A stretch of 64,000 bases of DNA from the IMG/VR virus record IMGVR_UViG_2839031043_000001; one strand, 5' to 3'. Within the stretch, counting starts at the first letter, position 1. Each line of letters opens with the position of its first letter. The position numbers and the translations under genes were made by a program. Shown here piece by piece: positions 1 through 54,651 of the stretch. The notes beneath the pieces are model-generated. The model was not told where the DNA came from. It was given only the letters and a program-made list of their open reading frames with translations, and did not search any database. The stretch is from an uncultured virus (IMG/VR IMGVR_UViG_2839031043_000001) (taxonomy: Duplodnaviria > Heunggongvirae > Uroviricota > Caudoviricetes).

Positions 1-85
1 CTAACCGTCATCCCTTTCTATTTGAGTTAAGTGTTCCAAAACACATTATAATAAAATATGGGTGTCGGTCAAACTTGACAAGTAG

Positions 86-532
86 GTGTCCAATATGATG
101 ACTAGAACAGATATCAATTTAATTAGAACTTATTGTGAGAATTATGGCTATGAACTGCTTACAACTGAATATAAAAATCAAAAACAGAAGTTAGATTTGC
201 GCTGTCCCGAATCCCATGTCTATACTGTTACATTTAACAATTTCAAAAGAGGGGATAGATGTACAACTTGTTCTGGCAAAGGAAGTGGGTTTAATAAATA
301 TGACGCACAAAAATGGTTTTCAGATCGAAATTGTGAATTGTTAACAGACGAGTATCAGAATCAGAAGCAATTACTTGATTATCTATGTAAATGTGGTGAA
401 CCAATGAAGAATACCATGCAAAGACTAAAGAACTTTTCAAAAGACCCATATTGTCTAAAATGTAGAAGAGGTGATGCAAAAAAACAACGACACGAAGATG
501 CAAGAGAACTCTTATCAAAAATTTGGTTCTGA
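86..532 (+). CDS. Zinc-ribbon repeat protein (two LLTxEYxNQKQxL..C repeats), putative DNA-binding protein
   Basis: Duplicated unit 'ELLTTEYKNQKQKLDLRCPESH...CTTC' / 'ELLTDEYQNQKQLLDYLCKCG...CLKC'; similar units occur in phage nuclease-associated Zn-ribbon proteins. Confidence 0.6.
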   Translation: MSNMMTRTDINLIRTYCENYGYELLTTEYKNQKQKLDLRCPESHVYTVTFNNFKRGDRCTTCSGKGSGFNKYDAQKWFSDRNCELLTDEYQNQKQLLDYLCKCGEPMKNTMQRLKNFSKDPYCLKCRRGDAKKQRHEDARELLSKIWF

Positions 533-534
533 TA

Positions 535-563
535 GTATTCATACGGTTGATCTGCACATAATA
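535..563 (+). promoter_or_regulatory. Putative sigma-G/F-type forespore promoter for the SASP gene
   Basis: GTATT(535-539)-17 bp-CATAATA(557-563) resembles the GNATR..CATNNTA consensus; imperfect -35. Confidence 0.4.
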
Positions 564-594
564 ATCTCTAACTTTTAATCATAGGGGTGAATAT

Positions 595-783
595 ATGACT
601 AGATCCAATCGTCTTCTTAATGGACAAGCCATAATAGCCTTAAATCAGCTTAAGTACGAGATTGCAAATGAATTTGGAGTAACACTAGGGGCAGAAACTA
701 CAAGCCGTCAAAATGGCTCTGTAGGGGGAGAGATGACTAATAGGCTAGTCCAATTAGCCGAATCTCAAATGAATAAGTTCTAA
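595..783 (+). CDS. ssp: Alpha/beta-type small acid-soluble spore protein (SASP)
   Basis: Hallmark motifs [10 protein letters not shown] and [24 protein letters not shown]; terminator follows. Confidence 0.95.
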
Positions 784-791
784 ATCAAATT

Positions 792-814
792 ATCCCTCAA
801 TATGAGGGATTTTT
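792..814 (+). terminator. Rho-independent terminator
   Basis: ATCCCTCA/TGAGGGAT stem followed by T-run. Confidence 0.8.
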
Positions 815-1008
815 ATTTATATATTTGAAAATTCAATAACAAAAGGCGAAATGCAGGTTATATAAGGTGGTAAAACGGGTATATAATCAGTAATCTAATT
901 CCAATCATAGCATTTAGGCGATATAAAAGTTTTTGCACAAAATCCATGATTGGAACTGCTTAACATACTTGATAAAATTTATCTAACACAAACATAAGGA
1001 GTTGCATC

Positions 1009-1683
1009 ATGGAAATAGTCAAATTCTTGTTCTTTTCATCCCTAGAATATCTATCCATCTTGTTCATGTTATCTGTATTGTTTCGTCTCTCATTTAAAGA
1101 GAACCTACCGCCATTCATTTTTATAGCGATAATACTTAATTTAGTTTCTTATTTTTCAAGATTTTCTGCTCAAATAGGGAGCTACGCTGTATTCCTCCAA
1201 GTCATCCTTTTGATTTCGTGTATCGTATTAATAATGAGAATTCATTGGTTCTATGCAGCTTCGATGGCGTTAATACCAAGTATTGGATTTTTAGTGGTAC
1301 AAGGGATTATCTTTTATATCCTAGACAGTTTATCACTCTTTAATTTGGCTGATGATGTAGGATCAGATGGAACAATTACATTTTGGGCGTATATGCTTCA
1401 GTTATTCACTGCAACTGTTTACACATTGCTTGCTTTAATTGCAAAATACTTAAACTATGGATGGTCTTTTGTGCCGCAAAGGGTTAAGCGAATAAATTTG
1501 AATCAACGTGACAACAAATTAATGCTATTAGGAATGATCATGAGTGTAGTGTTTTTACTGGTAATGCGTTATGCTGGTTTATCAGGTGGGGTATACTTGT
1601 TGATTAATTGCGTGGGTATGTTGATGTGTTATATCCTACTGTTTTGGGTATTTCATAAAAAGGAGCAGAGTTTTGATTTTTAA
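1009..1683 (+). CDS. Orphan multi-TM AgrC/AloC-like peptide receptor (membrane domain only, no histidine kinase)
   Basis: About 7 hydrophobic segments; paralog of 3889..4584 (FSSLEYL N-terminus, WFYA, LQ..T, FVP motifs). Confidence 0.75.
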   Translation: MEIVKFLFFSSLEYLSILFMLSVLFRLSFKENLPPFIFIAIILNLVSYFSRFSAQIGSYAVFLQVILLISCIVLIMRIHWFYAASMALIPSIGFLVVQGIIFYILDSLSLFNLADDVGSDGTITFWAYMLQLFTATVYTLLALIAKYLNYGWSFVPQRVKRINLNQRDNKLMLLGMIMSVVFLLVMRYAGLSGGVYLLINCVGMLMCYILLFWVFHKKEQSFDF

Positions 1684-1708
1684 CACCTTCTCAATGAAGG
1701 TGTTTTTT
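1682..1708 (+). terminator. Rho-independent terminator
   Basis: AACACCTTC/GAAGGTGTT stem plus T-run. Confidence 0.8.
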
Positions 1709-1818
1709 AATTGAAAAACCGTTTATAATTCTAAATCCTTCCTATGCCGTTTTGGACGATCAAAATAATAAGAAACACCCCATGAAAGATATCATAGAGT
1801 GATTCCTATTTTTTTGAT

Positions 1819-2352
1819 TTAGTTTGTGCAAGTCCAATCAAGAGTGAAATCATGTAAGTCAATATTAATCATTTCATGATTTACTTTTTGTAGTATAATT
1901 TTATTCTCCATTGCAATATGCATATCCATAAGTTGCATACTCGCAGCATACAAAGCATCTTCTTTTCGTATCGCTAGGTCTAAATTGACAATCAATTTAA
2001 GTATACCAAATGTTTTACCAGAATCATAGTCCAGCCATATAATGTCAAAATCGCCTACGCCTAAAGCATATTCATTGCTATCTAATGTGCGAACTGCAAT
2101 AGTTGAAATGTGTAAGTTGTTGTTGTTTAATTTGAAACGTGCCTCTTCATAGCTCTCTGTATTTAAAGAAATATTTAAAATAAACTCACCAAAAACTCTA
2201 GTGAGGGGATTTACATCGTAAAAAAGATGGGTTACACTAGCGATAGTCATAAATAGACAGACCTCCAGAATTTCTACTTTGGGGTTTGGCATCCCTATCG
2301 ATCCGCCAAGATAACTAGGGGTGCCATTTGTATTTATAAAGACAATTTTCAT
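1819..2352 (-). CDS. Hypothetical protein translationally coupled to the LytTR gene
   Basis: 177-aa ORF; ATGA overlap with the 2349..2681 stop. Confidence 0.6.
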   Translation of the reverse strand: MKIVFINTNGTPSYLGGSIGMPNPKVEILEVCLFMTIASVTHLFYDVNPLTRVFGEFILNISLNTESYEEARFKLNNNNLHISTIAVRTLDSNEYALGVGDFDIIWLDYDSGKTFGILKLIVNLDLAIRKEDALYAASMQLMDMHIAMENKIILQKVNHEMINIDLHDFTLDWTCTN

Positions 2353-2681
2353 TTAGTATTAGTCTCTGCCAATGCTTCCTTGACTAATGGAATTCTTGTT
2401 CTTGCAACACTTAGCATGCTGCCATCATTGAGATGGACAACTTGAAGTTTTGAATCAAATTCTTTAATGGCATCTTTTCTTACCAGTATTCCAGAATCGA
2501 TTCGAATAAATGTAGATCCCAATAACAGTATCCAATCATCCAGCGCGGTAATTTGATAGAAAGTCCCATTGCTCGTGTGCACCACAATATCATTTTTTTG
2601 ACGTTGGACATTGTTAATATCTTTAATATCAATCCAATGAATTTGTGAGCCATCTGAATTAATTACAGGAACTTTCACCAT
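2349..2681 (-). CDS. Stand-alone LytTR DNA-binding protein (AloA-like) #2
   Basis: 'IDIKDI...FIRIDSGILVRKDAIKEFD...VHLNDGSMLSVARTR' LytTR pattern; no receiver domain; RBS GGAGG. Confidence 0.8.
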   Translation of the reverse strand: MVKVPVINSDGSQIHWIDIKDINNVQRQKNDIVVHTSNGTFYQITALDDWILLLGSTFIRIDSGILVRKDAIKEFDSKLQVVHLNDGSMLSVARTRIPLVKEALAETNTK

Positions 2682-2832
2682 AACCTCCTCCGTTATCCGA
2701 CCTCTAATATTTTGTCAACAACAAATTGCATATGTGTTTTGTTCTTGACATAAGAATATCATATTATTTCCAGATCGGTAACTACTAGAAAATGCACAAA
2801 ATCAAACGTTGACATCATAACAGATTTATAGT

Positions 2833-2863
2833 AAGAGGTACATGTTTAGTTCATGTACCTCTT
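2833..2863 (-). terminator. 12-bp perfect hairpin at the end of the agr-like operon
   Basis: AAGAGGTACATG(2833-2844)/CATGTACCTCTT(2852-2863), overlapping the LytTR #1 stop. Confidence 0.6.
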
Positions 2864-3219
2864 CTTAATTCATCTAATTTGTTTTCTATATTTTTTTTCT
2901 TTGATAGTGATGCTGTAGTTCGCTCTCCATTCCCAAAGTAAATAATTCTATCTTTTGAGTCAAATCCTTCAATGTAGCGAGAATTAACGAGTATACCTTT
3001 TTCACTCAACACAAAGTCATCGTTGTCATATGATGCTCTAATAGCATCAAGCATGATATCTGCATCTGTTATTGTAGCATACTCCCCGTCTGTAGTGTGG
3101 AAGTGGAGTATCCTTTTATCTGTTGCATTTACTTTCTTGATCATGTAGACATCATTAAGATCAATGACTTTGTATCTCGTTCCTCCTTCTCCCACACGTA
3201 CACACAGGTGTTTGTACAT
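2851..3219 (-). CDS. Stand-alone LytTR DNA-binding protein (AloA-like) #1
   Basis: 'IDLNDVYMI...FVLSEKGILVNSRYIEGFD..IIYFGNG..SLSK' LytTR pattern; paralog of 2349..2681; directly downstream of agrD. Confidence 0.8.
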   Translation of the reverse strand: MYKHLCVRVGEGGTRYKVIDLNDVYMIKKVNATDKRILHFHTTDGEYATITDADIMLDAIRASYDNDDFVLSEKGILVNSRYIEGFDSKDRIIYFGNGERTTASLSKKKNIENKLDELRRGT

Positions 3220-3235
3220 TGTAAGTCTCCTCTTA

Positions 3236-3373
3236 TTATTTCTTAAGTAGCTCTTTTGGCACTTTAGGTTGGTGTACTAATGATGCTGAAAGGGGAGTCG
3301 CGATAATAGTTGCTAAAGCTGCAAGTGCAGTGGAAGCGTAATGTGCGACATTAGCCTTACTGAGTTTTTTCAT
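3236..3373 (-). CDS. agrD: AgrD/AloP-type cyclic lactone autoinducer precursor, 45 aa MKKLSKANVAHYASTALAALATIIATPLSASLVHQPKVPKELLKK (missing from the ORF track)
   Basis: Translated by hand; RBS GAAGGGAGGT; amphipathic leader, S-x4 core and HQPxxPxEL tail typical of AgrD; overlaps the agrB stop. Confidence 0.92.
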   Translation of the reverse strand: MKKLSKANVAHYASTALAALATIIATPLSASLVHQPKVPKELLKK

Positions 3374-3902
3374 TCCATTCACCTCCCTTCGTGATTAACA
3401 GTGTTATCGCTTGTACAAAAAACGCTTTAGTTAAAATATCTGACATGAATAAAAAGTTTGAGGCAACCAAAAGAATAGACAACAATTTTAAAGACGGATA
3501 ATGCTTTGCTGTAAAGATTCTTGATTGATTTATTCCAATAGGTGCCAACCAAGCAATAAGTATAATAGAAGCAATCATTAAACGTATTCCCGAGTAATAG
3601 TCAAGTGGAATCAATGGTAAAGCTACAGCACCAATAATGCTAGATAGGGTACACGCTTCAGCCGTTTTAAAATGATATCCTCCCGAAATAGATCTCAATG
3701 AAACAAATGCAAAAATAGTGAGTAATGTTTCTATTAGGGTTCCAAGTAGAGCAGAGAATAGCATTGAGAAAGCAATTGCTGAACCTGTACCAATAACAGC
3801 GATTAATGAGTATTTCATTACCTCTACACTGGCTGTGTCTTGGGGATTGGCATCTTTTATTTTCTGTGCTATTTTTTCTGCTGCATTTTCAATCATACTC
3901 AA
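3357..3902 (-). CDS. agrB: AgrB membrane peptidase/cyclase
   Basis: 'LRSISGGYHFKTAEAC' with catalytic His and Cys; 'LAP' motif; multi-TM. Confidence 0.93.
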   Translation of the reverse strand: MSMIENAAEKIAQKIKDANPQDTASVEVMKYSLIAVIGTGSAIAFSMLFSALLGTLIETLLTIFAFVSLRSISGGYHFKTAEACTLSSIIGAVALPLIPLDYYSGIRLMIASIILIAWLAPIGINQSRIFTAKHYPSLKLLSILLVASNFLFMSDILTKAFFVQAITLLITKGGEWNEKTQ

Positions 3903-4584
3903 TTAAATTCCTCTTTCTGCACAGATAATAGATTATAAAAATGACTAAGACATAAAACACAAGAATCGGATACTGCAACAAAGGTGTTCTATTAAACACA
4001 TATAAAAAGATTACAGTAATGGCGACTGATAAAAGTTGTGCTACGAATAACCATCTGTTCTCTTTAAGGTTCCAAACTGGTCTGGAGGATTCAGGCACAA
4101 ATTCAAACCACAATTCAAATTTACGTATCAACTTACATAAAATCAAAACGACAATGACTGTAATAGTTTGTAATACAAATCCTATTACTGAAATGCCTGA
4201 TCCTGAAGAACTTTGAAGGTCAGCAAGATAGTTCAAGGTACCAAACTTTTGTAAAACTATGAATATTAATGCCTGAATTAATGTGTACGTTGTCCAAGGG
4301 AATAATGTAATGATGCCAGCATAGAACCATTGAATATTCCACACGTATCTAAACCCGAGCATTAGAAAAAGATTTTGAACAAAAATGGCAGCAAACATTC
4401 CCCACCAATATTCATCAATCCCTAAGCCATACCTAAATATGTGGGATGCTAGGTTTAGACAAACGATTACAAAAAATATCTGCCCCTTGTACTCTCTAAG
4501 CGGGAAATTGAACCAAGTAAAGATAAAGACAAACATAGCCAAATACTCAAGTGAAGAAAACAAAGTAAATAGGATAAATTCCAT
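3889..4584 (-). CDS. AgrC/AloC-like multi-TM peptide receptor lacking a histidine kinase domain
   Basis: About 7 TM segments; first gene of the operon, overlapping agrB; no HisKA/HATPase sequence. Confidence 0.8.
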   Translation of the reverse strand: MEFILFTLFSSLEYLAMFVFIFTWFNFPLREYKGQIFFVIVCLNLASHIFRYGLGIDEYWWGMFAAIFVQNLFLMLGFRYVWNIQWFYAGIITLFPWTTYTLIQALIFIVLQKFGTLNYLADLQSSSGSGISVIGFVLQTITVIVVLILCKLIRKFELWFEFVPESSRPVWNLKENRWLFVAQLLSVAITVIFLYVFNRTPLLQYPILVFYVLVIFIIYYLCRKRNLIEYD

Positions 4585-4680
4585 TTTTCTTCCCCATTCT
4601 ATTCTCTAAAATTAGTATCCTATGTAGATTGTACCATTATGTATAAACATTGGGAGGTGCAAGTTTCCTTTTTTATAAAC

Positions 4681-5359
4681 CCAGAGTATATGGCTACAAG
4701 AGACATGTGTTTACTACTGAACCACACAAACTTTATGACTGCTAAAGTCATAAAGATACGCTTTTTTTATCAGTGAAATTAGAGCAAAGGAAGATAATAT
4801 ACGGATGGGAATATCCAATTTATGTTCGACACCACTTTGAATGAAATGAGAGTTAGTAGAAACTAAGTAGCATATAAAGCGAAAGTTAGACTCAGTTGAA
4901 TATAAACTGGGCAAAGTTTACACCATTGAAGATATTTTTTGTAGAAGGGGTATAGATTAATTACCCTGAAACCTAGCATAAATAAACCATCTCAAATTTT
5001 ATGAGGTCACTGAAAGAGTCTCATAGCTACACCAAAGGTTCAGTCACTCATTAAACAATGAGGAAACTGTGCCTTTTTTCTATATATTGATTCATCACAA
5101 GGGAGATCACAGAGGTTTAGGTATAGACCAATCTGCACTTTTTTATATTCATTGGTATCTTGTAGAATCAATATGCATTTACACACATGCAACAGGATAT
5201 CTAAACATCTGCCAATATCCATAGATATATTAAAGCGACGACTTTGTATTGTAGGTGTCCTCTAGTTGGAGTAGCAGAATTGGATAGATTAGAGGTCATG
5301 GGATTAACTCCATCCGGGTCAATAAGCTCATGAGCAATTAAGTATATGGTATACTTTGG
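4681..5359 (+). ncRNA. Candidate large, ornate structured ncRNA (~680 nt; ROOL/GOLLD-like size class)
   Basis: No credible ORF; 5'/3' closing helix 4681-4690/5350-5359; more than 10 internal helices and at least 2 pseudoknots found by eye; wobble pairs are G-U on the + strand. Confidence 0.7.
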
Positions 5360-5381
5360 AAAACGTTACGAGAGGTTAGAC

Positions 5382-6593
5382 ATGTCTGTCAAATTGGAGT
5401 TTGCAGAGCTTGAATCTAAACTGATACATATATCAGATCGAATTTGCAAAGATGAAACATACCTTTGTCCATTGTGTAAACAAGAAGTCATAGCACGTAA
5501 AGGGACTAAAAGACGGCACCACTTCTCACATAAACCTGACAGTGAATGTTCAGCGAACGAGGAAACGTTATTACATTTTAATGCGAAGAATTACTTGGCT
5601 TATTGTGTGTCCAGTAACTATAAGCTAGACGATATAACGTTCAATATCCCAACTGACTTACTGGATGAGTCTATCCAAAAGGTTTTAAACATTTTAGGTA
5701 TTCGTTATTATCCTTTGTCATTGGATAAGTTAAATTCATTTTATTATTTTTATAAAGCAAAAACAGAGCAACGAGTGGATAACTTTATAGCTGATGTTCT
5801 TGTTAATTGTGTAGAGCATAGGGTTGTCCATCCATACGGTTATTATGATAGTAGTGTTGGATATGACGTAAAAGAGATTGATCATGGCAAGTTTGTGTTT
5901 GAGATGAAAGTAACTCATGATATGGGTGAAGAGAAAAGAAACAGTTTACTCAAATCACGAATCCCATTTATTGAAGCAGTGCCAGAGCAAACAGATAATG
6001 GTTTTACTTACTGGGTTACATCATTATCACGGTTATTAGCAATGGATGACACAAAGAATAACTTAGTTCAATTTTTGAGTATTCTTTTCAAGGATGAATT
6101 GATTCAAGTAGGAAAACAAATGTACGACCATGTTAGAGAAAAAGAGCTTATGAAAAATGCTATTGAGCATGCAATTGACAATGTGGATGGATTAAACTTA
6201 CGCGACTACATAAGTAGGGAGCAGTTCAATAGTATTAACACATTAACAGCACAAGCGTATAAATCAGAAGTGAAGAGAATCAGCACATTGCATAGCATGA
6301 GATACAAGACAAGTCAACAAGGTGCCAACTTCATCTCTGTCAATGAACATTGGTCATGGAGTAGAGGTGACAATATTCTGTATGACTTGATTAAAAAGCT
6401 TCAGGAACAGCAATATGATGTAGAAGTATTAATTGGTGGTTACAATGAAACAACCAAAGATAGAGTTGTTGGATTTCAAATTAGATTACCTGATAAACAT
6501 TTGTATGGAGAGCAACTGAAACGAGTTATTAAGGCTGGATTAATGGATTTATTGAATGAAATAGACGTAAATACTGAAAAAAATACCCCCTAG
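5382..6593 (+). CDS. CoiA-like Zn-finger + PD-(D/E)XK nuclease family protein
   Basis: CPLC..HHFSH..C, ETLLH..AK, ADVLV..FEMKVTH; likely start ATG 5382 after GAGAGG. Confidence 0.7.
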   Translation: MSVKLEFAELESKLIHISDRICKDETYLCPLCKQEVIARKGTKRRHHFSHKPDSECSANEETLLHFNAKNYLAYCVSSNYKLDDITFNIPTDLLDESIQKVLNILGIRYYPLSLDKLNSFYYFYKAKTEQRVDNFIADVLVNCVEHRVVHPYGYYDSSVGYDVKEIDHGKFVFEMKVTHDMGEEKRNSLLKSRIPFIEAVPEQTDNGFTYWVTSLSRLLAMDDTKNNLVQFLSILFKDELIQVGKQMYDHVREKELMKNAIEHAIDNVDGLNLRDYISREQFNSINTLTAQAYKSEVKRISTLHSMRYKTSQQGANFISVNEHWSWSRGDNILYDLIKKLQEQQYDVEVLIGGYNETTKDRVVGFQIRLPDKHLYGEQLKRVIKAGLMDLLNEIDVNTEKNTP

Positions 6594-6610
6594 AATTAAC
6601 TAGGGGGTAT
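6583..6610. terminator. Bidirectional hairpin between convergent genes
   Basis: ATACCCCCTAG/CTAGGGGGTAT. Confidence 0.7.
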
Positions 6611-6625
6611 AAGGTATTACCATTG

Positions 6626-8144
6626 CTACTGCTTTTTGCAAAATGGACAACTGTAAATTTTACCATTACTTCTATGCCTTGAGTTGGGACTGGCTTGCCA
6701 TTCATGCCCACGTATACATTTCCACCACACTTTTTTGTTTGAAGAAAAGGCAATATCAAATGATGTTAAGGGGTGGTTTTTGGTATTATTCCATTCATTC
6801 AACAGTGGAGACTGTTTAAACCCGAGACTTTTACAGACCTTACATACGGCTCTATGGTTAACAACTTTACTAATTTTTCTTTTCCACTCATGCCCATTTT
6901 TACAAATCCACCAAACACTTATTCTTGATTTTGGGGCAAAATTTTCTGGTTTGAGTAATCCATTTCTATCGTAATTCCAATGAGNNNNNNNNNNCAATTT
7001 CGGGGTAAGCAGCCTTCAAACTATTCTCTTTTATATCATTTGAATACAACTGCGCAATATAAGTTTCATCTCTACTTATGTCAATAAATGAGTCCATATT
7101 ATAATTACTTAAGAGTTTGTTATTATTTTCATCACAATTTTGATTTATCCATTTAAAGATATTGACAATACAATCTTTAAGGCTTAAATAATCCGAAGCT
7201 TTTAGATGTGTTAAGACTGATGAACCATAAGGCTTTAAGCTAGGCAAGATATAATTGCCATTACATCGTATCCTAAAAAGTTTAATCCCTTTGGCAGTCA
7301 ATACCTCATTCTTTAATTCGTCTCTTTCAGATTTATTAATGTGCCAATAACCATCATATTCAATGCCTAGTCTAAGAGAAGGAATGTATACATCAATCTC
7401 AAAATTTACTTTATTATCATTAAATTTGAAGCGGTTAACAGTATCTTTAAAAATACTTTTAAAATAATAGTATATCGCCTGTTCTGGAAAAGATGTATGT
7501 AAATAACTTTTACATCTGGGACAACTTTTACCATCTTTTCTGCCTATTATTGTAGTCTCCCATTCGTGACCACATTTTTTACACAACCACCAAGCTTTTT
7601 TATGGGAATATGGTCTAACACTATCAGGTGGGTATGAGTTTTTTGTAGGATGCCATTCACTTGCAAGATCTGGATTTAATGCTAACAAGTTGACCTCATT
7701 AGTTGCTTTCTTGCCTTTACATGAAGGGCAGTCATAATTCGCCAAAGCACGACTACTAATGGATCGACGGTACTCATGACCACAACGACCAAGCCACCAC
7801 ACAATTTTCTTAGAGCCATAAGAAACATCAAACGGGGTTAAGGTGTTATTTTTTTCAGGATGCCACTCTGTAGCTAAATCAGGTTTTACTATTGCTAAAC
7901 AGTTGGCTGAACTAACCTTCTTGCCAGAGCAATAAGGACACCCGGTTTGGTTTCGCTTATTTGTTCGACTATTAACTGTAGCTTCATATAAATGACCCAT
8001 TGAACATTTCCAACTAATAACTTTCTTTGAGCCATAACTCACTTCAAACGGATTTAAGCTGCCATTCTCGTCATAATTCCACTCATTTAGTAATTGTGGA
8101 AATTTTGCACCTAGACTATTTTCTTTACTCAAGAGTACCTCCAC
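6626..8144 (-). CDS. Multi zinc-ribbon (EW..N..P..V..GS.K..WW.C..GHEW) protein with a central Vsr/DUF559-like endonuclease domain; one gene spanning an N-gap
   Basis: About 5 repeated Zn-ribbon units across both ORF fragments; 'EIDVYIPSLRLGIEYDGYWH..D..K' nuclease motif. Confidence 0.75.
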
Positions 8145-8214
8145 AAATTAAAAAAGGCTACTGATAAATTCAGCAGCCTTAGAAAAACAATGTTTCTATA
8201 TTGGAACTTCTTTG

Positions 8215-8529
8215 TTATTTTGATAGAGCATTCTTAAATTCCAAAACGGACTTCTCAATTAATCCCTTTAACTCAACATCAGTATATTTCAAACCCTTTT
8301 TATTTAACTCAGTTGTAATCCATTTAATGGCTTCCTCGTACTTTTGTTCTCCACCATAATCTTTAAATGCCTGCTCAACAAAACGCACACCAATTTCTAC
8401 AAGTTCCTTTTTATCACGAAACTTGGATAGGTCAATATTACGCTTGATAATATATGAGGCACCAGTAGCAACTAAAACCGTGACAATAAGTAGCAAATTC
8501 TCAAAAATATCCTTAATTAATGTATCCAT
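8215..8529 (-). CDS. Phage holin (LL-H-like)
   Basis: One N-terminal TM; 'V.FVEQ....GEQK..EA...IE..V' pattern; next to the endolysin. Confidence 0.75.
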   Translation of the reverse strand: MDTLIKDIFENLLLIVTVLVATGASYIIKRNIDLSKFRDKKELVEIGVRFVEQAFKDYGGEQKYEEAIKWITTELNKKGLKYTDVELKGLIEKSVLEFKNALSK

Positions 8530-8635
8530 GAATAATTTCCTCCAATTTAAAGTTTTGATGAATCGTGAAACCCTTGATACATAAGGGTTTTTAGTTATGT
8601 ATTTTTCGATAAAAGTGATATTTTATTGTATATTT

Positions 8636-9394
8636 TTATTTATTAGAGACTCGATCAAGTAACAAAAGTGTCAGCCATGGAAGTTCCTGATATATAGTGC
8701 CGTCATCCACACGCTTTACCCAAATGTCAGGATCGTTCAAGATACCTTTTTTGGTTAGACTCTCAATAGCTCCCTTTGCGTACTGTTTGCCTTGTTCAGA
8801 CATAATGAATTGCATAAATTTATCCTCCTTTGATTGATCAGGCTTATTTTCAACTTTGCTGTTAAGCATTTGCTTTACCAATACTTTAAAACGTACAAAC
8901 TCAGCAGGATTGTTAACCCAAGGCAATGGGCATCGCTTCCATCCAACTACCCCCTGATGTGTCCAAATATCCTTTTCAGTCAATCCATACTTTTTACAAA
9001 GAATAACCACTAACTCTGCTGCTTTTTGAAAAGTTTTCTCTGTAATGTTTCCATTCTTGTCGATACACATCTCAATCCCAATTGTGCAGTTGTTTGGATA
9101 ACTACCCAGACGATTCAGTGCTTCTGATGTATAATCTTTTGAGCCACAGTGATATGCCATTTCGTCATCTGGTATTGCTTGATATGTATTGTAATCATCA
9201 ACAGAATAATGAGCTGAAGCAAACCTTGCATCGGAAGTATCTTTTTGATATTTAAGTCCATCGAAATACTTAACTATATTGATTGCAGGAGCAGAAGGTG
9301 AAGCTGTGTAGTGCATGACTATGCCTCGAACAGACTTTAGTTTAATGGCTGGTCTTGAGAATTTATTGACAGTAATAAAATGCTGATTAATCAT
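8636..9394 (-). CDS. Endolysin, N-acetylmuramoyl-L-alanine amidase (Amidase_2)
   Basis: IVMHYTA, SAHY.VD, AYHCG, IGIEMC, HQ....K.CP motifs. Confidence 0.92.
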   Translation of the reverse strand: MINQHFITVNKFSRPAIKLKSVRGIVMHYTASPSAPAINIVKYFDGLKYQKDTSDARFASAHYSVDDYNTYQAIPDDEMAYHCGSKDYTSEALNRLGSYPNNCTIGIEMCIDKNGNITEKTFQKAAELVVILCKKYGLTEKDIWTHQGVVGWKRCPLPWVNNPAEFVRFKVLVKQMLNSKVENKPDQSKEDKFMQFIMSEQGKQYAKGAIESLTKKGILNDPDIWVKRVDDGTIYQELPWLTLLLLDRVSNK

Positions 9395-32280: not shown

Positions 32281-33237
32281 TTATGAGAAAGCATCATCTA
32301 ATTCATCATCAGTTTCTTTAATTACATAAATTTTAGTTGTTTCTGAACTTTCATGTCCTAAAAGGGCTTGGGCAGACTCAATGTTTTTTCCGCTCAATAC
32401 AAGGTGAGTAGCTCTTGTAGACCTAAGCTGATGGGGATGAACTCGTCTTCCAACAATTGCTGTGAAAATTTCAGAGCACCAATAATTAAAGGTTGTCGGG
32501 TTGACCTGATTTACTTTACCTTCTTGAGTTTTTTTAACAAAGACATACGGACACTCATCTTCACCACGAACAGCAATCCATTTTTTTATTGCATCCATGG
32601 CTTGATCATCAAATACCAATTTACGCTGCTTACCTTGTTTGCTTCTACCTTTGCACCGAATAGTATGGGTTAGGTAATAGGGCTTTCCCTTAACTTTCGA
32701 ATAGTCAACGACTTCTTTCAATAACTGACGGACTTCTTCACGCCTTGCGCCAGTTGAGTATGAGAATTGTATATATGCAAGCATTTGCCATTCTTCACGT
32801 TCCTCAAGGGTTTTAATTAACAATTGAAGTTCTTCTTCGGTCAAAGGCTTCTTTTCATTTTTAAGTGCTTTTGGGGGATTAGGGATTTGCTTATTGTAGA
32901 TGTTTCTAAAAAGGGGATAATCTTCTCCATAGTACAGTTCAACAAATCCACAGAGACTTGAAACAACAGATCGCTTTAATTTAACAGCACTGGATGAAAG
33001 TCCACGAGCCATGAGAAAATTTTGATATTTCAGAGCATCCCTAGCTTTTAATTCATAAATAGGCTTGTTCATACATTGATCATGTACAAACCTAAAGAAG
33101 ATTCTCAAAGCACTGCGGTATTGGGTGAGCGTCTTATCAGATAGATGCTGTTGATTTAAGAACTCTTCGGTGATGGTTTGATTAAATTCTTTGACCAATG
33201 CCCATTCCTGTTCTGTTACTTCTGTTAGTTTTTGCAT
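32281..33237 (-). CDS. Tyrosine recombinase embedded in the tail operon (SPbeta YomM-like)
   Basis: TGARREE, HPHQLR, LLGH, TKIY: full catalytic set. Confidence 0.9.
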   Translation of the reverse strand: MQKLTEVTEQEWALVKEFNQTITEEFLNQQHLSDKTLTQYRSALRIFFRFVHDQCMNKPIYELKARDALKYQNFLMARGLSSSAVKLKRSVVSSLCGFVELYYGEDYPLFRNIYNKQIPNPPKALKNEKKPLTEEELQLLIKTLEEREEWQMLAYIQFSYSTGARREEVRQLLKEVVDYSKVKGKPYYLTHTIRCKGRSKQGKQRKLVFDDQAMDAIKKWIAVRGEDECPYVFVKKTQEGKVNQVNPTTFNYWCSEIFTAIVGRRVHPHQLRSTRATHLVLSGKNIESAQALLGHESSETTKIYVIKETDDELDDAFS

Positions 33238-53601: not shown

Positions 53602-54651
53602 ATGTTAATGAATACAGCGGTTAATAACATTGTTGGTTTCAATAATAGGAGTGTGTATAGCACAATCACATCTTTTCTAGAGTATAAAGGGGATAGAAGC
53701 GACGATACACAGAAAGCATATAAAAAAGACATAAAAATATTCTTTATGTACACAAGGAACAAAAATATAGATCAATTAGAAGTAATTGACTTGGAATTTA
53801 CCATTGAAGATGTAATTAAATATCGAAATTATTTGGGAGGGCTTAAGAAAGCAGATGGGGAGCGTAAATATGTAAATAAGTCGATAAATAGAATGATTGA
53901 TTCACTTCGATCACTATACAGCTATCTTGAAAGAGCAAAGTATGACGTAGATAAGTCAGCATTTGCTTTGGACGACCTTCCTGAACATGACTCTAAAGAG
54001 ATTGGATACTTGACTCTCGAAGAAATTGAGCAGATGATCGAACATGCTAAAAGCTTGCCTAATGGCACTGAGAAGTATATTTTTTGGGAATTGGGCTGGA
54101 AGACATCGATTCGTATTAATGCATTATTATCAATTACTTGGGAGGACTTTCGGAAAGTAAATGATGACATTGTGATTGTACGTGCCATTGAAAAAGGCAA
54201 TGAAATCAGAGAGATGCCAATTACAAATGAGTTTTATCAACGTATCCTAGAAATTAGAGGAAATGCGAAACCGACAGATAGAGTCTTTAAATTTGGAAGC
54301 ACGACCGTTTTTAATACAATGGAAATACTCAAAGAAAGAATTGGCATTTCAGAAGATAGAGAGGTTAGTTTTCATTCAGTGCGTAAATTCTTGATTGATT
54401 TAATGGTTGACCTTGGTGATTTAAAAGCAGCTATGGCTCAATCAGGTCACAAAAGCATTGAAACATTATGGAAGCACTATGCGAATAAACAAAAAGACTA
54501 TGAGAGCATGGCAGGAGTTATGATTGAAAGAACCCTTAACGAAGCAGCATTAGATGAAATGAGCAAAGAAGAGCTACTTGCAATTATTAAAGCAGATGGT
54601 CAAATTAAGAATCGAGTTTTGATGAAACTTGCAAGAGGGAAGAGAGGCTAA
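53602..54651 (+). CDS. Tyrosine recombinase-fold protein (divergent box I); recombinase or MrpR/YopR-like regulator
   Basis: SAM-like N-terminus; TSIRINALL, FHSVRK, SGH, KHY. Confidence 0.8.
   Translation: MLMNTAVNNIVGFNNRSVYSTITSFLEYKGDRSDDTQKAYKKDIKIFFMYTRNKNIDQLEVIDLEFTIEDVIKYRNYLGGLKKADGERKYVNKSINRMIDSLRSLYSYLERAKYDVDKSAFALDDLPEHDSKEIGYLTLEEIEQMIEHAKSLPNGTEKYIFWELGWKTSIRINALLSITWEDFRKVNDDIVIVRAIEKGNEIREMPITNEFYQRILEIRGNAKPTDRVFKFGSTTVFNTMEILKERIGISEDREVSFHSVRKFLIDLMVDLGDLKAAMAQSGHKSIETLWKHYANKQKDYESMAGVMIERTLNEAALDEMSKEELLAIIKADGQIKNRVLMKLARGKRG

Follow-up and report, generated by a model that had tools for sequence, protein, structure and literature searches.

Organization of a kinase-less agr-type module in a Brevibacillus prophage

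The stretch of DNA analyzed here (hereafter called the window) comprises 64,000 nucleotides (nt) of an uncultured virus of the Caudoviricetes (IMG/VR record IMGVR_UViG_2839031043_000001) and is a large prophage of Brevibacillus. Seven associated genes lie at its left end, of which six are on the minus strand while the seventh, C2, is on the plus strand and faces them. Four of the minus-strand genes form an agr-type cassette encoding a membrane protein similar to the sensor half of AgrC (C1), the peptidase homologue AgrB, an AgrD-family peptide precursor and a LytTR protein devoid of a receiver domain (LytTR-1). The other three genes encode C2, which is an orphan relative of C1, a second receiver-less LytTR protein (LytTR-2) and a small protein of 143 amino acids (aa). 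The extra membrane protein and the extra LytTR protein are genuine, intact and maintained genes rather than decayed copies. The genes and features of the module are as follows, with the basis of each assignment in brackets:

3889..4584, minus strand: C1, kinase-less membrane protein of 231 aa resembling the AgrC sensor, first gene of the cassette (open reading frame, profile, phrog_15604)
3357..3902, minus strand: AgrB peptidase homologue, 181 aa (PF04647, E = 4.5e-22)
3236..3373, minus strand: AgrD-family precursor, 45 aa from its ATG; the open reading frame extends to 3382, 48 aa (TIGR04223)
2851..3219, minus strand: LytTR-1, receiver-less LytTR protein of 122 aa, last gene of the canonical cassette (Pfam)
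2349..2681, minus strand: LytTR-2, receiver-less LytTR DNA-binding protein of 110 aa (Pfam LytTR)
1819..2250, minus strand: gene of the 143-aa protein; the open reading frame extends to 2352, 177 aa (start taken from relatives)
1009..1683, plus strand: C2, orphan seven-helix membrane protein of 224 aa (open reading frame, homology, AlphaFold2 model)
856..886, plus strand: candidate LytTR box, direct repeat (weak evidence)
950..978, plus strand: sigma-70-like promoter site ahead of C2 (consensus match only)
1682..1704, plus strand: intrinsic-terminator-like hairpin at the end of the C2 transcript (folding)
1776..1801, minus strand: terminator-like hairpin ending the minus-strand transcript (-21.4 kcal/mol, z = -7.2)
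2834..2862, minus strand: hairpin with an 11-bp stem between the two LytTR genes, possibly a partial terminator or attenuator (-17.3 kcal/mol, z = -3.8)

Profile hidden Markov models run over all open reading frames (ORFs) of at least 30 aa in the window recovered one AgrB, one AgrD-like peptide, two membrane proteins of one family and two LytTR proteins, which bears out the count of a single agrD and a single agrB in the initial annotation of this DNA. No second signal gene was found in the window or in a related provirus of 163 kb (L003), and neither the ORF list nor Pfam revealed a histidine-kinase gene in 1..9000. AgrB matches PF04647 with 78.7 bits against a cut-off of 23 and AgrD matches TIGR04223 with 31.8 bits against a cut-off of 19. 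The C-terminal part of the AgrD precursor reads TPLSASLVHQPKVPKELLKK, ends in a conserved ...VPKEL tail and contains no cysteine, so that the cyclic peptide is probably a serine lactone; the AgrB cut site, and hence the ring, is placed on the model of staphylococcal AgrD. When the window is compared to the provirus, the AgrB-AgrD segment (3236-3902 against 2217-2886) is far more diverged than the genes around it, with 73% (AgrB) and 76% (AgrD) amino acid identity compared to 93-95% for C1, C2 and the LytTR proteins and with a synonymous divergence (dS) of 0.86-1.13 compared to 0.11-0.30 elsewhere, though the putative ring SASLV is unchanged; this segment looks swapped or hypervariable.

Both LytTR proteins consist of the LytTR domain alone and lack a REC domain by Pfam. 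Without kinase and without receiver, the phosphorelay from AgrC to AgrA does not apply here, and the receptor/regulator pair that the initial annotation had assumed in the extra genes therefore cannot be understood in that sense.

C2 is an intact and conserved orphan membrane protein

The ORF of C2 is intact, and AGGAG lies 7 nt ahead of its ATG. C2 proved to be a diverged paralog of C1, as first annotated: the two proteins share 27% identity over 197 residues (E = 2e-18), both match phrog_15604 (E = 1.5e-16 and 2.1e-15) and have the motif FSSLEYL of the N-terminal helix in common, while their cytoplasmic loops differ in charge and no Pfam domain was found in either. An AlphaFold2 model of C2 has seven helices (pLDDT 88.6, pTM 0.87); searching PDB by sequence profile gave no match at E ≤ 10, and Foldseek found no PDB entry similar to the model at E ≤ 0.001 but only generic seven-helix proteins. 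C2 retains all nearly invariant residues of its family. We call it an orphan because no agrB follows it, although its length, fold and profile match fit the family; it has no agrBD of its own at the canonical downstream position. In the phylogeny C1 and C2 fall inside one clade of 22 rows (support 96) without being sisters, and C2 sits on a long branch with its own orthologues only. The identity of 27%, this long separate branch and the non-sister placement rule out that C2 is a recent tandem duplicate of C1.

The gene is predicted to be transcribed from the opposite strand with its own terminator, in line with the initial annotation. A promoter-like site with a TG extension (TTGGAA-17-TAAAAT, 950-978) precedes C2 and is overlapped by an inverted repeat (899-915/939-955), and the hairpin at 1682-1704 folds at -12.5 kcal/mol (z = -3.6); a scan of 1..5400 for promoter-like sites gave 21 against 26 expected from shuffled sequences and thus no excess. 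Further upstream lie a second promoter-like pair, TTCCAA (899-904)-17-TATAAA (922-927), and, 12 bp before its weak -35 element TTCCAA, the direct repeat of 856-886, which is composed of GGTTATATAA and GGGTATATAA with 11 nt between them (21 bp start to start). This repeat is single in the window when up to 3 mismatches are allowed, no direct repeats of this kind were found upstream of C1 or LytTR-2, and footprinting of four chromosomal cassette promoters gave no clear direct repeat.

The whole module is collinear at the end of the provirus record L003, in which C2 is 95% identical to that of the window. By exact look-ups, each of the four carriers, namely the window's own contig of 1.17 Mb, B. 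brevis X23, B. porteri and a contig from JGI, has C1 as well as C2, and the carriers examined have intact copies of all seven genes. Outside this lineage, C2 by itself matched no related locus in species-representative genomes, while neither C1 (tblastn against phages) nor the region 800-4800 (blastn against phage records) had any match. In the comparison with the provirus, the ratio of nonsynonymous to synonymous substitution rates (dN/dS) is 0.11 for C2 (at dS 0.24), 0.10 for C1 and 0.09 for LytTR-1, and it is higher for LytTR-2 (0.33) and the 143-aa gene (0.29). This evidence is modest since a single pair of sequences was compared.

LytTR-2 and the adjacent 143-aa gene

LytTR-2 matches Pfam LytTR at E = 6.5e-11 and is 22% identical to LytTR-1. 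The initial annotation had described this gene as preceded by a hairpin and by its own ribosome-binding site. Its LytTR domain, the sequence GGAGGAGG just ahead of its start and the hairpin at 2834-2862, which follows the LytTR-1 gene, all stand. The hairpin lacks a clean T-run, however, and the terminator scan did not call it. As the minus strand of 2682-2850 also yielded no promoter-like site, LytTR-2 is just as likely to be transcribed by read-through from the operon as on its own. In a LytTR tree both proteins of the window fall on long branches whose placement lacks support. When searched against four genomes, LytTR-2 has a sole genome-wide match in the LytTR protein of a chromosomal cassette (31-32% identity, E ~2e-10; see below), and LytTR-1 has no BLAST match in the same four genomes.

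The translational coupling of LytTR-2 to a gene of 177 aa, as first annotated, is not borne out by the relatives of this gene. Three of the four relatives (those of L003, B. brevis X23 and B. porteri) lack its first 34 residues, start at an internal methionine and encode 143 aa, and one relative from JGI has the 177-aa form. As the extension is not conserved, the conserved gene is probably 1819..2250, which starts ~98 nt past the LytTR-2 stop codon and is not translationally coupled to it. Homologues of the 143-aa protein are confined to the same prophage lineage; it gave no Pfam match above cut-off and none among PHROG, NCBIfam or Atlas, the 177-aa form has a match to Methyltransf_35 at chance level (E = 0.02, 14.7 bits against a cut-off of 27), and the AlphaFold2 model of the 143-aa protein is of low confidence and all-beta (pLDDT 53).

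A family of AgrC-like sensor halves without kinase

A profile built from C1 and C2 and searched against 1.84 billion representative sequences at E ≤ 1e-3 recovered a family of 313 representatives; among the best 150 of these 313, nearly all have about 210-245 aa. Of 401 evenly sampled Bacilli genomes, 37 had a match to the family profile, and within the Brevibacillus family of bacteria the protein family was found in 24 of 61 sampled genomes. Strong matches are kinase-less, whereas weak ones cover the N-terminal ~210 residues of proteins of 406-474 aa. In three of the latter (L176, L177 and L178 with 471, 441 and 453 aa), the profile aligns to residues ~5-215 with per-genome E-values of 6.4e-9, 3.6e-6 and 6.2e-6; all three carry HATPase_c_5, L176 and L177 also SPOB_a, and L177 and L178 adjoin AgrB while L176 adjoins a REC-LytTR gene. 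This match to the N-terminus of AgrC-type kinases identifies the family as the AgrC sensor half without the kinase. Both C1 and C2 stop after helix 7 and have no histidine-kinase domain, and C1 displays all features of the family, belonging to the class of ~220 aa with seven helices and being encoded directly upstream of agrB.

Several polar residues inside the helices are conserved in the family (S10, E13, S47, R51, Q64, Q98 and Q131), of which S10, E13, S47 and R51 are mostly common to the kinases L176-L178, with E13 present in all three. The loop between helices 5 and 6 carries a G-F-x-F-V/I-P motif (G151/F154/P156) that is conserved at 0.81-0.94 in the kinase-less family but not in the three true kinases, and the positive-inside rule suggests that this loop is cytoplasmic. 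We also observed other architectures. L155, L171, L175 and L179 encode proteins of 406-450 aa that join the sensor half of the family to a C-terminal half without detectable ATPase domain and lie ahead of AgrB and a complete REC-LytTR regulator, and in L172 and L173 such a sensor-half protein (406-450 aa, no detectable ATPase domain) adjoins a separate soluble kinase with HisKA and HATPase_c.

Among the 401 Bacilli genomes, AgrB by Pfam is the next and often overlapping gene in 39 of 39 chromosomal loci with a kinase-less family member, and the same is true for phages Emery and Davies. In 29 of these 39 loci the small peptide ORF is followed by an ORF of 110-136 aa. Pfam recognizes LytTR at E ≤ 0.001 in 22 of the 29 (four of the 22 just below the Pfam cut-off), and the other seven are recognized only by a custom LytTR profile, to which six of them had partly contributed. 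Two other loci have a full REC-LytTR regulator downstream and one has a LytTR protein of 242 aa. The locus L118 has a second, larger ORF containing LytTR, and so does L159 (G410), where it encodes 295 aa (4023-4910) directly after the small LytTR gene. The genome of L165 (G422) has six family matches, with a decayed cassette (6010-6880; a fragmented membrane-protein gene and an AgrB of 162 aa) lying 7 kb from an intact one.

Phage cassettes with "one or two" membrane proteins without ATPase domain are mentioned in passing in the accessible parts of Hargreaves et al. 2014 (PMC3901668), and searches of the open-access literature yielded no study on the function of the kinase-less cassette. The cassette has thus been known since 2014 but is uncharacterised, and the extra orphan receptor and regulator are an added variation.

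Extra family copies in other phages

Beyond the window, extra copies of the membrane protein are rare on chromosomes and recur in phages. An intact second family copy within 6 kb is seen at a single locus among 54 on chromosomes, namely L136, which is prophage-like and related to Emery. Five distinct phages have the family, of which Emery and Davies contain two copies and Abouo, Harrison and Paisley contain one. Davies, Emery and L136 combine two membrane proteins with one AgrBD and one LytTR protein, and the window stands alone among the loci examined in having two small LytTR genes. In Davies and Emery, the extra upstream copy shares 50% identity with the only receptor of Abouo, a phage with a different AgrD, compared to just 33-37% with the neighboring copy; the neighboring copy together with AgrB, AgrD and LytTR matches a single cassette, L134, at 67-88%. 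For Davies, Emery and the related prophage, dN/dS is 0.18-0.26 for the extra copies and 0.09-0.14 for the main copies, as expected under purifying selection. Abouo and Davies are near-collinear, but their cassettes differ, so that swapping of cassettes does occur. In these only comparable cases (Davies, Emery and the related prophage), the orphan receptors thus belong to other receptor lineages, nearest to the receptor of a cassette that makes a different peptide, and were probably retained when a cassette was swapped.

Potential sources of a second peptide were found on Brevibacillus chromosomes. The B. brevis group has a chromosomal cassette consisting of a membrane protein of 218 aa, AgrB and an AgrD ending in ...STASFGFVGKPEIPEELKK, without LytTR within 6 kb, which belongs to a cluster of 58 members; we observed it at L123-L128 and L130 (G333, G196, G360, G288, G279, G252 and G306). 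B. brevis X23, which carries C2, appears to hold a separate chromosomal cassette with a different AgrD, so that a second, different peptide is apparently made in at least one of the carrier strains. A further cassette found on a chromosome, with proteins named after B. reuszeri, encodes an AgrD that is 59-70% identical to that of the phage, with the putative ring SAGLS compared to SASLV, and it is the LytTR protein of this cassette that LytTR-2 matches. Candidates for a second signal are thus the peptide of a host chromosomal cassette or that of a related phage.

Comparison with known systems

The closest counterparts of the module are found in the temperate Brevibacillus phages Davies (gp44-48), Emery (gp53-57) and Abouo (gp44-47), which share with the window a membrane protein of phrog_15604 and the gene order of membrane protein, AgrB, AgrD with ...PKEL tail and an ORF of ~121 aa in the position of LytTR. 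This ORF matches the custom LytTR profile at E ~1e-30 but has no Pfam LytTR match at E ≤ 0.001, and the gene in this position is not mentioned in the accessible parts of Hargreaves et al. 2014 (PMC3901668). Davies and Emery share with the window the presence of a second membrane paralogue, though their two copies lie in tandem on one strand with one LytTR gene, whereas the extra copy of the window is encoded convergently between a promoter-like site and a terminator of its own and is accompanied by a second LytTR gene and the 143-aa gene. The membrane proteins of Davies, Emery and Abouo are only 25-27% identical to C2.

The staphylococcal agrBDCA system has AgrB (PF04647), AgrD (TIGR04223), a sensor module (in AgrC) homologous to the membrane protein and the LytTR domain of AgrA in common with the window. 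The window differs in having neither histidine-kinase domain nor receiver, and thus no phosphorelay; in a peptide without cysteine, for which a lactone is expected instead of a thiolactone (the name of TIGR04223 covers cyclic lactones); in the gene order C-B-D-LytTR; and in the extra orphan receptor and regulator. Another point of reference are the LytTR regulatory systems (LRS) HdrRM and BrsRM of Streptococcus mutans, in which a membrane protein restrains the regulator and its release triggers autoregulation (Zou et al. 2018, PMC6193735). Like these, the window encodes a receiver-less LytTR regulator together with a membrane protein, and the logic that we propose for it is the same, with C1 and C2 as candidate inhibitors of LytTR proteins. 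Unlike in the window, the regulator gene comes first in LRS and, in the accessible text of that article, the systems contain no peptide-synthesis genes and no AgrC homology is reported for their membrane inhibitors (PMC6193735). The direct repeats of LRS are described there as 9 bp long, with a spacer of 11-13 bp and located ~10 bp upstream of the -35 element of the operon promoter (PMC6193735), to which the window offers one weak candidate, 856-886, upstream of C2 only. Finally, the agr genes of Clostridioides difficile phage phiCDHM1 lie just past the lysis genes and encode a full-length AgrC (453 aa) and, in the accessible parts of its description, no LytTR regulator (PMC3901668). This phage thus resembles the window as a temperate phage with agr genes just after its lysis genes, and differs from it in that the receptors of the window lack the kinase and are accompanied by two LytTR proteins.

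A possible second input to phage peptide signaling

We favor the reading that C1, AgrB, AgrD and LytTR-1 form a kinase-less agr-type module and that C2 and LytTR-2 most likely add a second peptide input or tune its output, and we hold it tentatively, as slightly less than an even bet. AgrB and AgrD would generate a secreted cyclic peptide, probably a serine lactone, which C1 may bind in an outward-facing polar pocket as a kinase-less homologue of the AgrC sensor half. The membrane protein would then control LytTR directly in an LRS-like manner, holding it at the membrane and releasing it via the cytoplasmic G-F-x-F-V/I-P loop, with LytTR-1 acting as a bare DNA-binding domain that has no phospho-receiver. 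C2 would be a second, separately transcribed receptor of distinct lineage without signal genes, and LytTR-2 along with the small protein encoded downstream of it may constitute a second output or a modulator. A second peptide input for C2 is plausible, for which we infer the ligand, the receptor-regulator pairing and the output, while any role in the life-cycle decision of the phage is conjecture.

The idea of a different peptide and a two-input circuit, which goes back to the initial annotation, partly stands, as the parts are intact, no agrBD lies beside C2, Davies and Emery set a precedent and a carrier has a second chromosomal AgrD; what nothing supports is a tie of C2 to LytTR-2 or to any given peptide. 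A bolder and rather unlikely version would be a two-channel sensor free of phosphorylation, in which C1 reads the peptide of the phage and C2 a foreign one (of the host's ...SFGFV type or of a rival phage), each directly capturing and releasing a bare LytTR protein via the GFxFVP loop. The phage could then compare its own numbers with those of the host, and orphans kept after cassette swaps would be a general route to eavesdropping.

Several observations weigh against the reading that we favor. C2 and LytTR-2 lie on opposite strands in a layout that is not a degenerate cassette. A repeat like that at 856-886 arises in 13% of resampled sequences of the region and is thus within chance, and no convincing operator motif shared by the regions upstream of C1, C2 and LytTR-2 was found. 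In the comparison with host-type receptors that the initial annotation had put forward, C2 is no nearer to them than C1, both fall in a polytomy, and the tree does not order C2 relative to two chromosomal receptor types (the name AloC, used there for such a receptor, was not found in the open-access literature, in which none of the papers listed concerns such a protein by its title). At 7 of the 39 kinase-less loci, in addition to the B. brevis-group cassette, no LytTR gene lies within 6 kb, so that the membrane protein need not act via an adjacent LytTR protein. One family protein, P0079, is fused to AgrB and is compatible with a role in peptide production as well as in sensing, and it is on homology that the receptor function of the kinase-less family rests.

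Among the alternatives, the one that survives best is that C2 is no independent input but sets threshold or gain by forming mixed oligomers with C1 or by titrating the same peptide, while LytTR-2 competes with LytTR-1 at the same DNA sites; we consider this rather unlikely. AgrC-type sensors act as dimers, and receiver-less proteins of the BlpS type are thought to be such competitors in streptococcal bacteriocin loci. The shared clade and FSSLEYL motif of C1 and C2, the pairing of two membrane proteins with one AgrBD and one LytTR protein in Davies, Emery and L136 and the lack of a second signal gene in the window and the 163-kb provirus are all consistent with a role of this kind. It fits poorly with the low identity of C1 and C2 and the different charge of their cytoplasmic loops, with the predicted transcription signals of C2 on the other strand and with the resemblance of the extra copies of Davies and Emery to the receptor of another cassette rather than to their neighbor, and Abouo and L134 work with one copy each.

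Alternatively, the family might comprise not receptors but partners of AgrB in the maturation or export of the peptide or in self-protection, with C2 as a spare or alternative part for export or immunity and the LytTR proteins regulated in some other way. This explanation, which strikes us as unlikely, would account for the position of the family gene directly upstream of agrB and often overlapping it at all 39 loci, for P0079 and for the cassettes without a nearby LytTR gene. Canonical agr systems need no such extra protein, though, and homology of the family to the sensor half of AgrC-type kinases extends over the whole length and includes buried polar residues; orphan copies without agrBD such as C2 and the extras of Davies and Emery would be hard to explain, and P0079 (408 aa; membrane protein and AgrB in one protein) may be a real fusion or may result from a frameshift where the two genes overlap. 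That C2 and LytTR-2 are functionless leftovers of an older cassette overwritten by phage recombination is very doubtful because, for all that cassettes are swapped as between Abouo and Davies, that C2 has a long stem branch with no cassette of its type known and that dN/dS of LytTR-2 and the 143-aa gene exceeds that of the core genes, none of the seven genes is broken in the carriers examined, C2 evolves at a dN/dS of 0.11 with the nearly invariant family residues kept and has a good ribosome-binding site and a terminator, extra copies in three other elements are under purifying selection, too, and the orientation is unlike that of a simple decayed C-B-D-LytTR unit.

Peptide communication of phages is known mainly from arbitrium, and agr-type genes of phages have been seen without explanation. 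The family would represent sensing of cyclic peptides without kinase or phosphotransfer, and a direct link from receptor to LytTR, if it holds, would join agr systems to uncharacterised LytTR regulatory systems. With two receptors and two regulators for one signal, the window is a natural case that makes listening to a foreign signal testable.

Genomic neighborhood

The prophage genes of the window include a holin (8215..8529), an endolysin (8636..9394), tail genes, a tape measure, a terminase-like gene and two integrase-like genes. The cassette is located directly past the lysis genes in a late-end, post-lysis cluster of accessory genes and adjoins a gene for a small acid-soluble spore protein of alpha/beta type that is carried on the prophage (595-783; PF00269, E = 5.8e-20). 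Rfam gave a chance-level miRNA match and nothing else over 1..9000. The 761 bp upstream of C1 (4585-5345) hold no convincing ORF and no Rfam hit, with a terminator-like hairpin on the minus strand (4755-4731) ~150 nt ahead of the C1 start, and could encode a small transcript or a long regulatory leader. The flanks of the cassette (86-532, 5346-6593 and 6626-8144) carry genes resembling zinc-ribbon, CapR and HNH-endonuclease proteins as well as CoiA-N, and a run of 80 N from 6985 breaks one gene of this cluster. The two genes similar to tyrosine integrases are located at 32281-33237 and 53602-54651, one of them embedded between the tape-measure gene and other structural genes.

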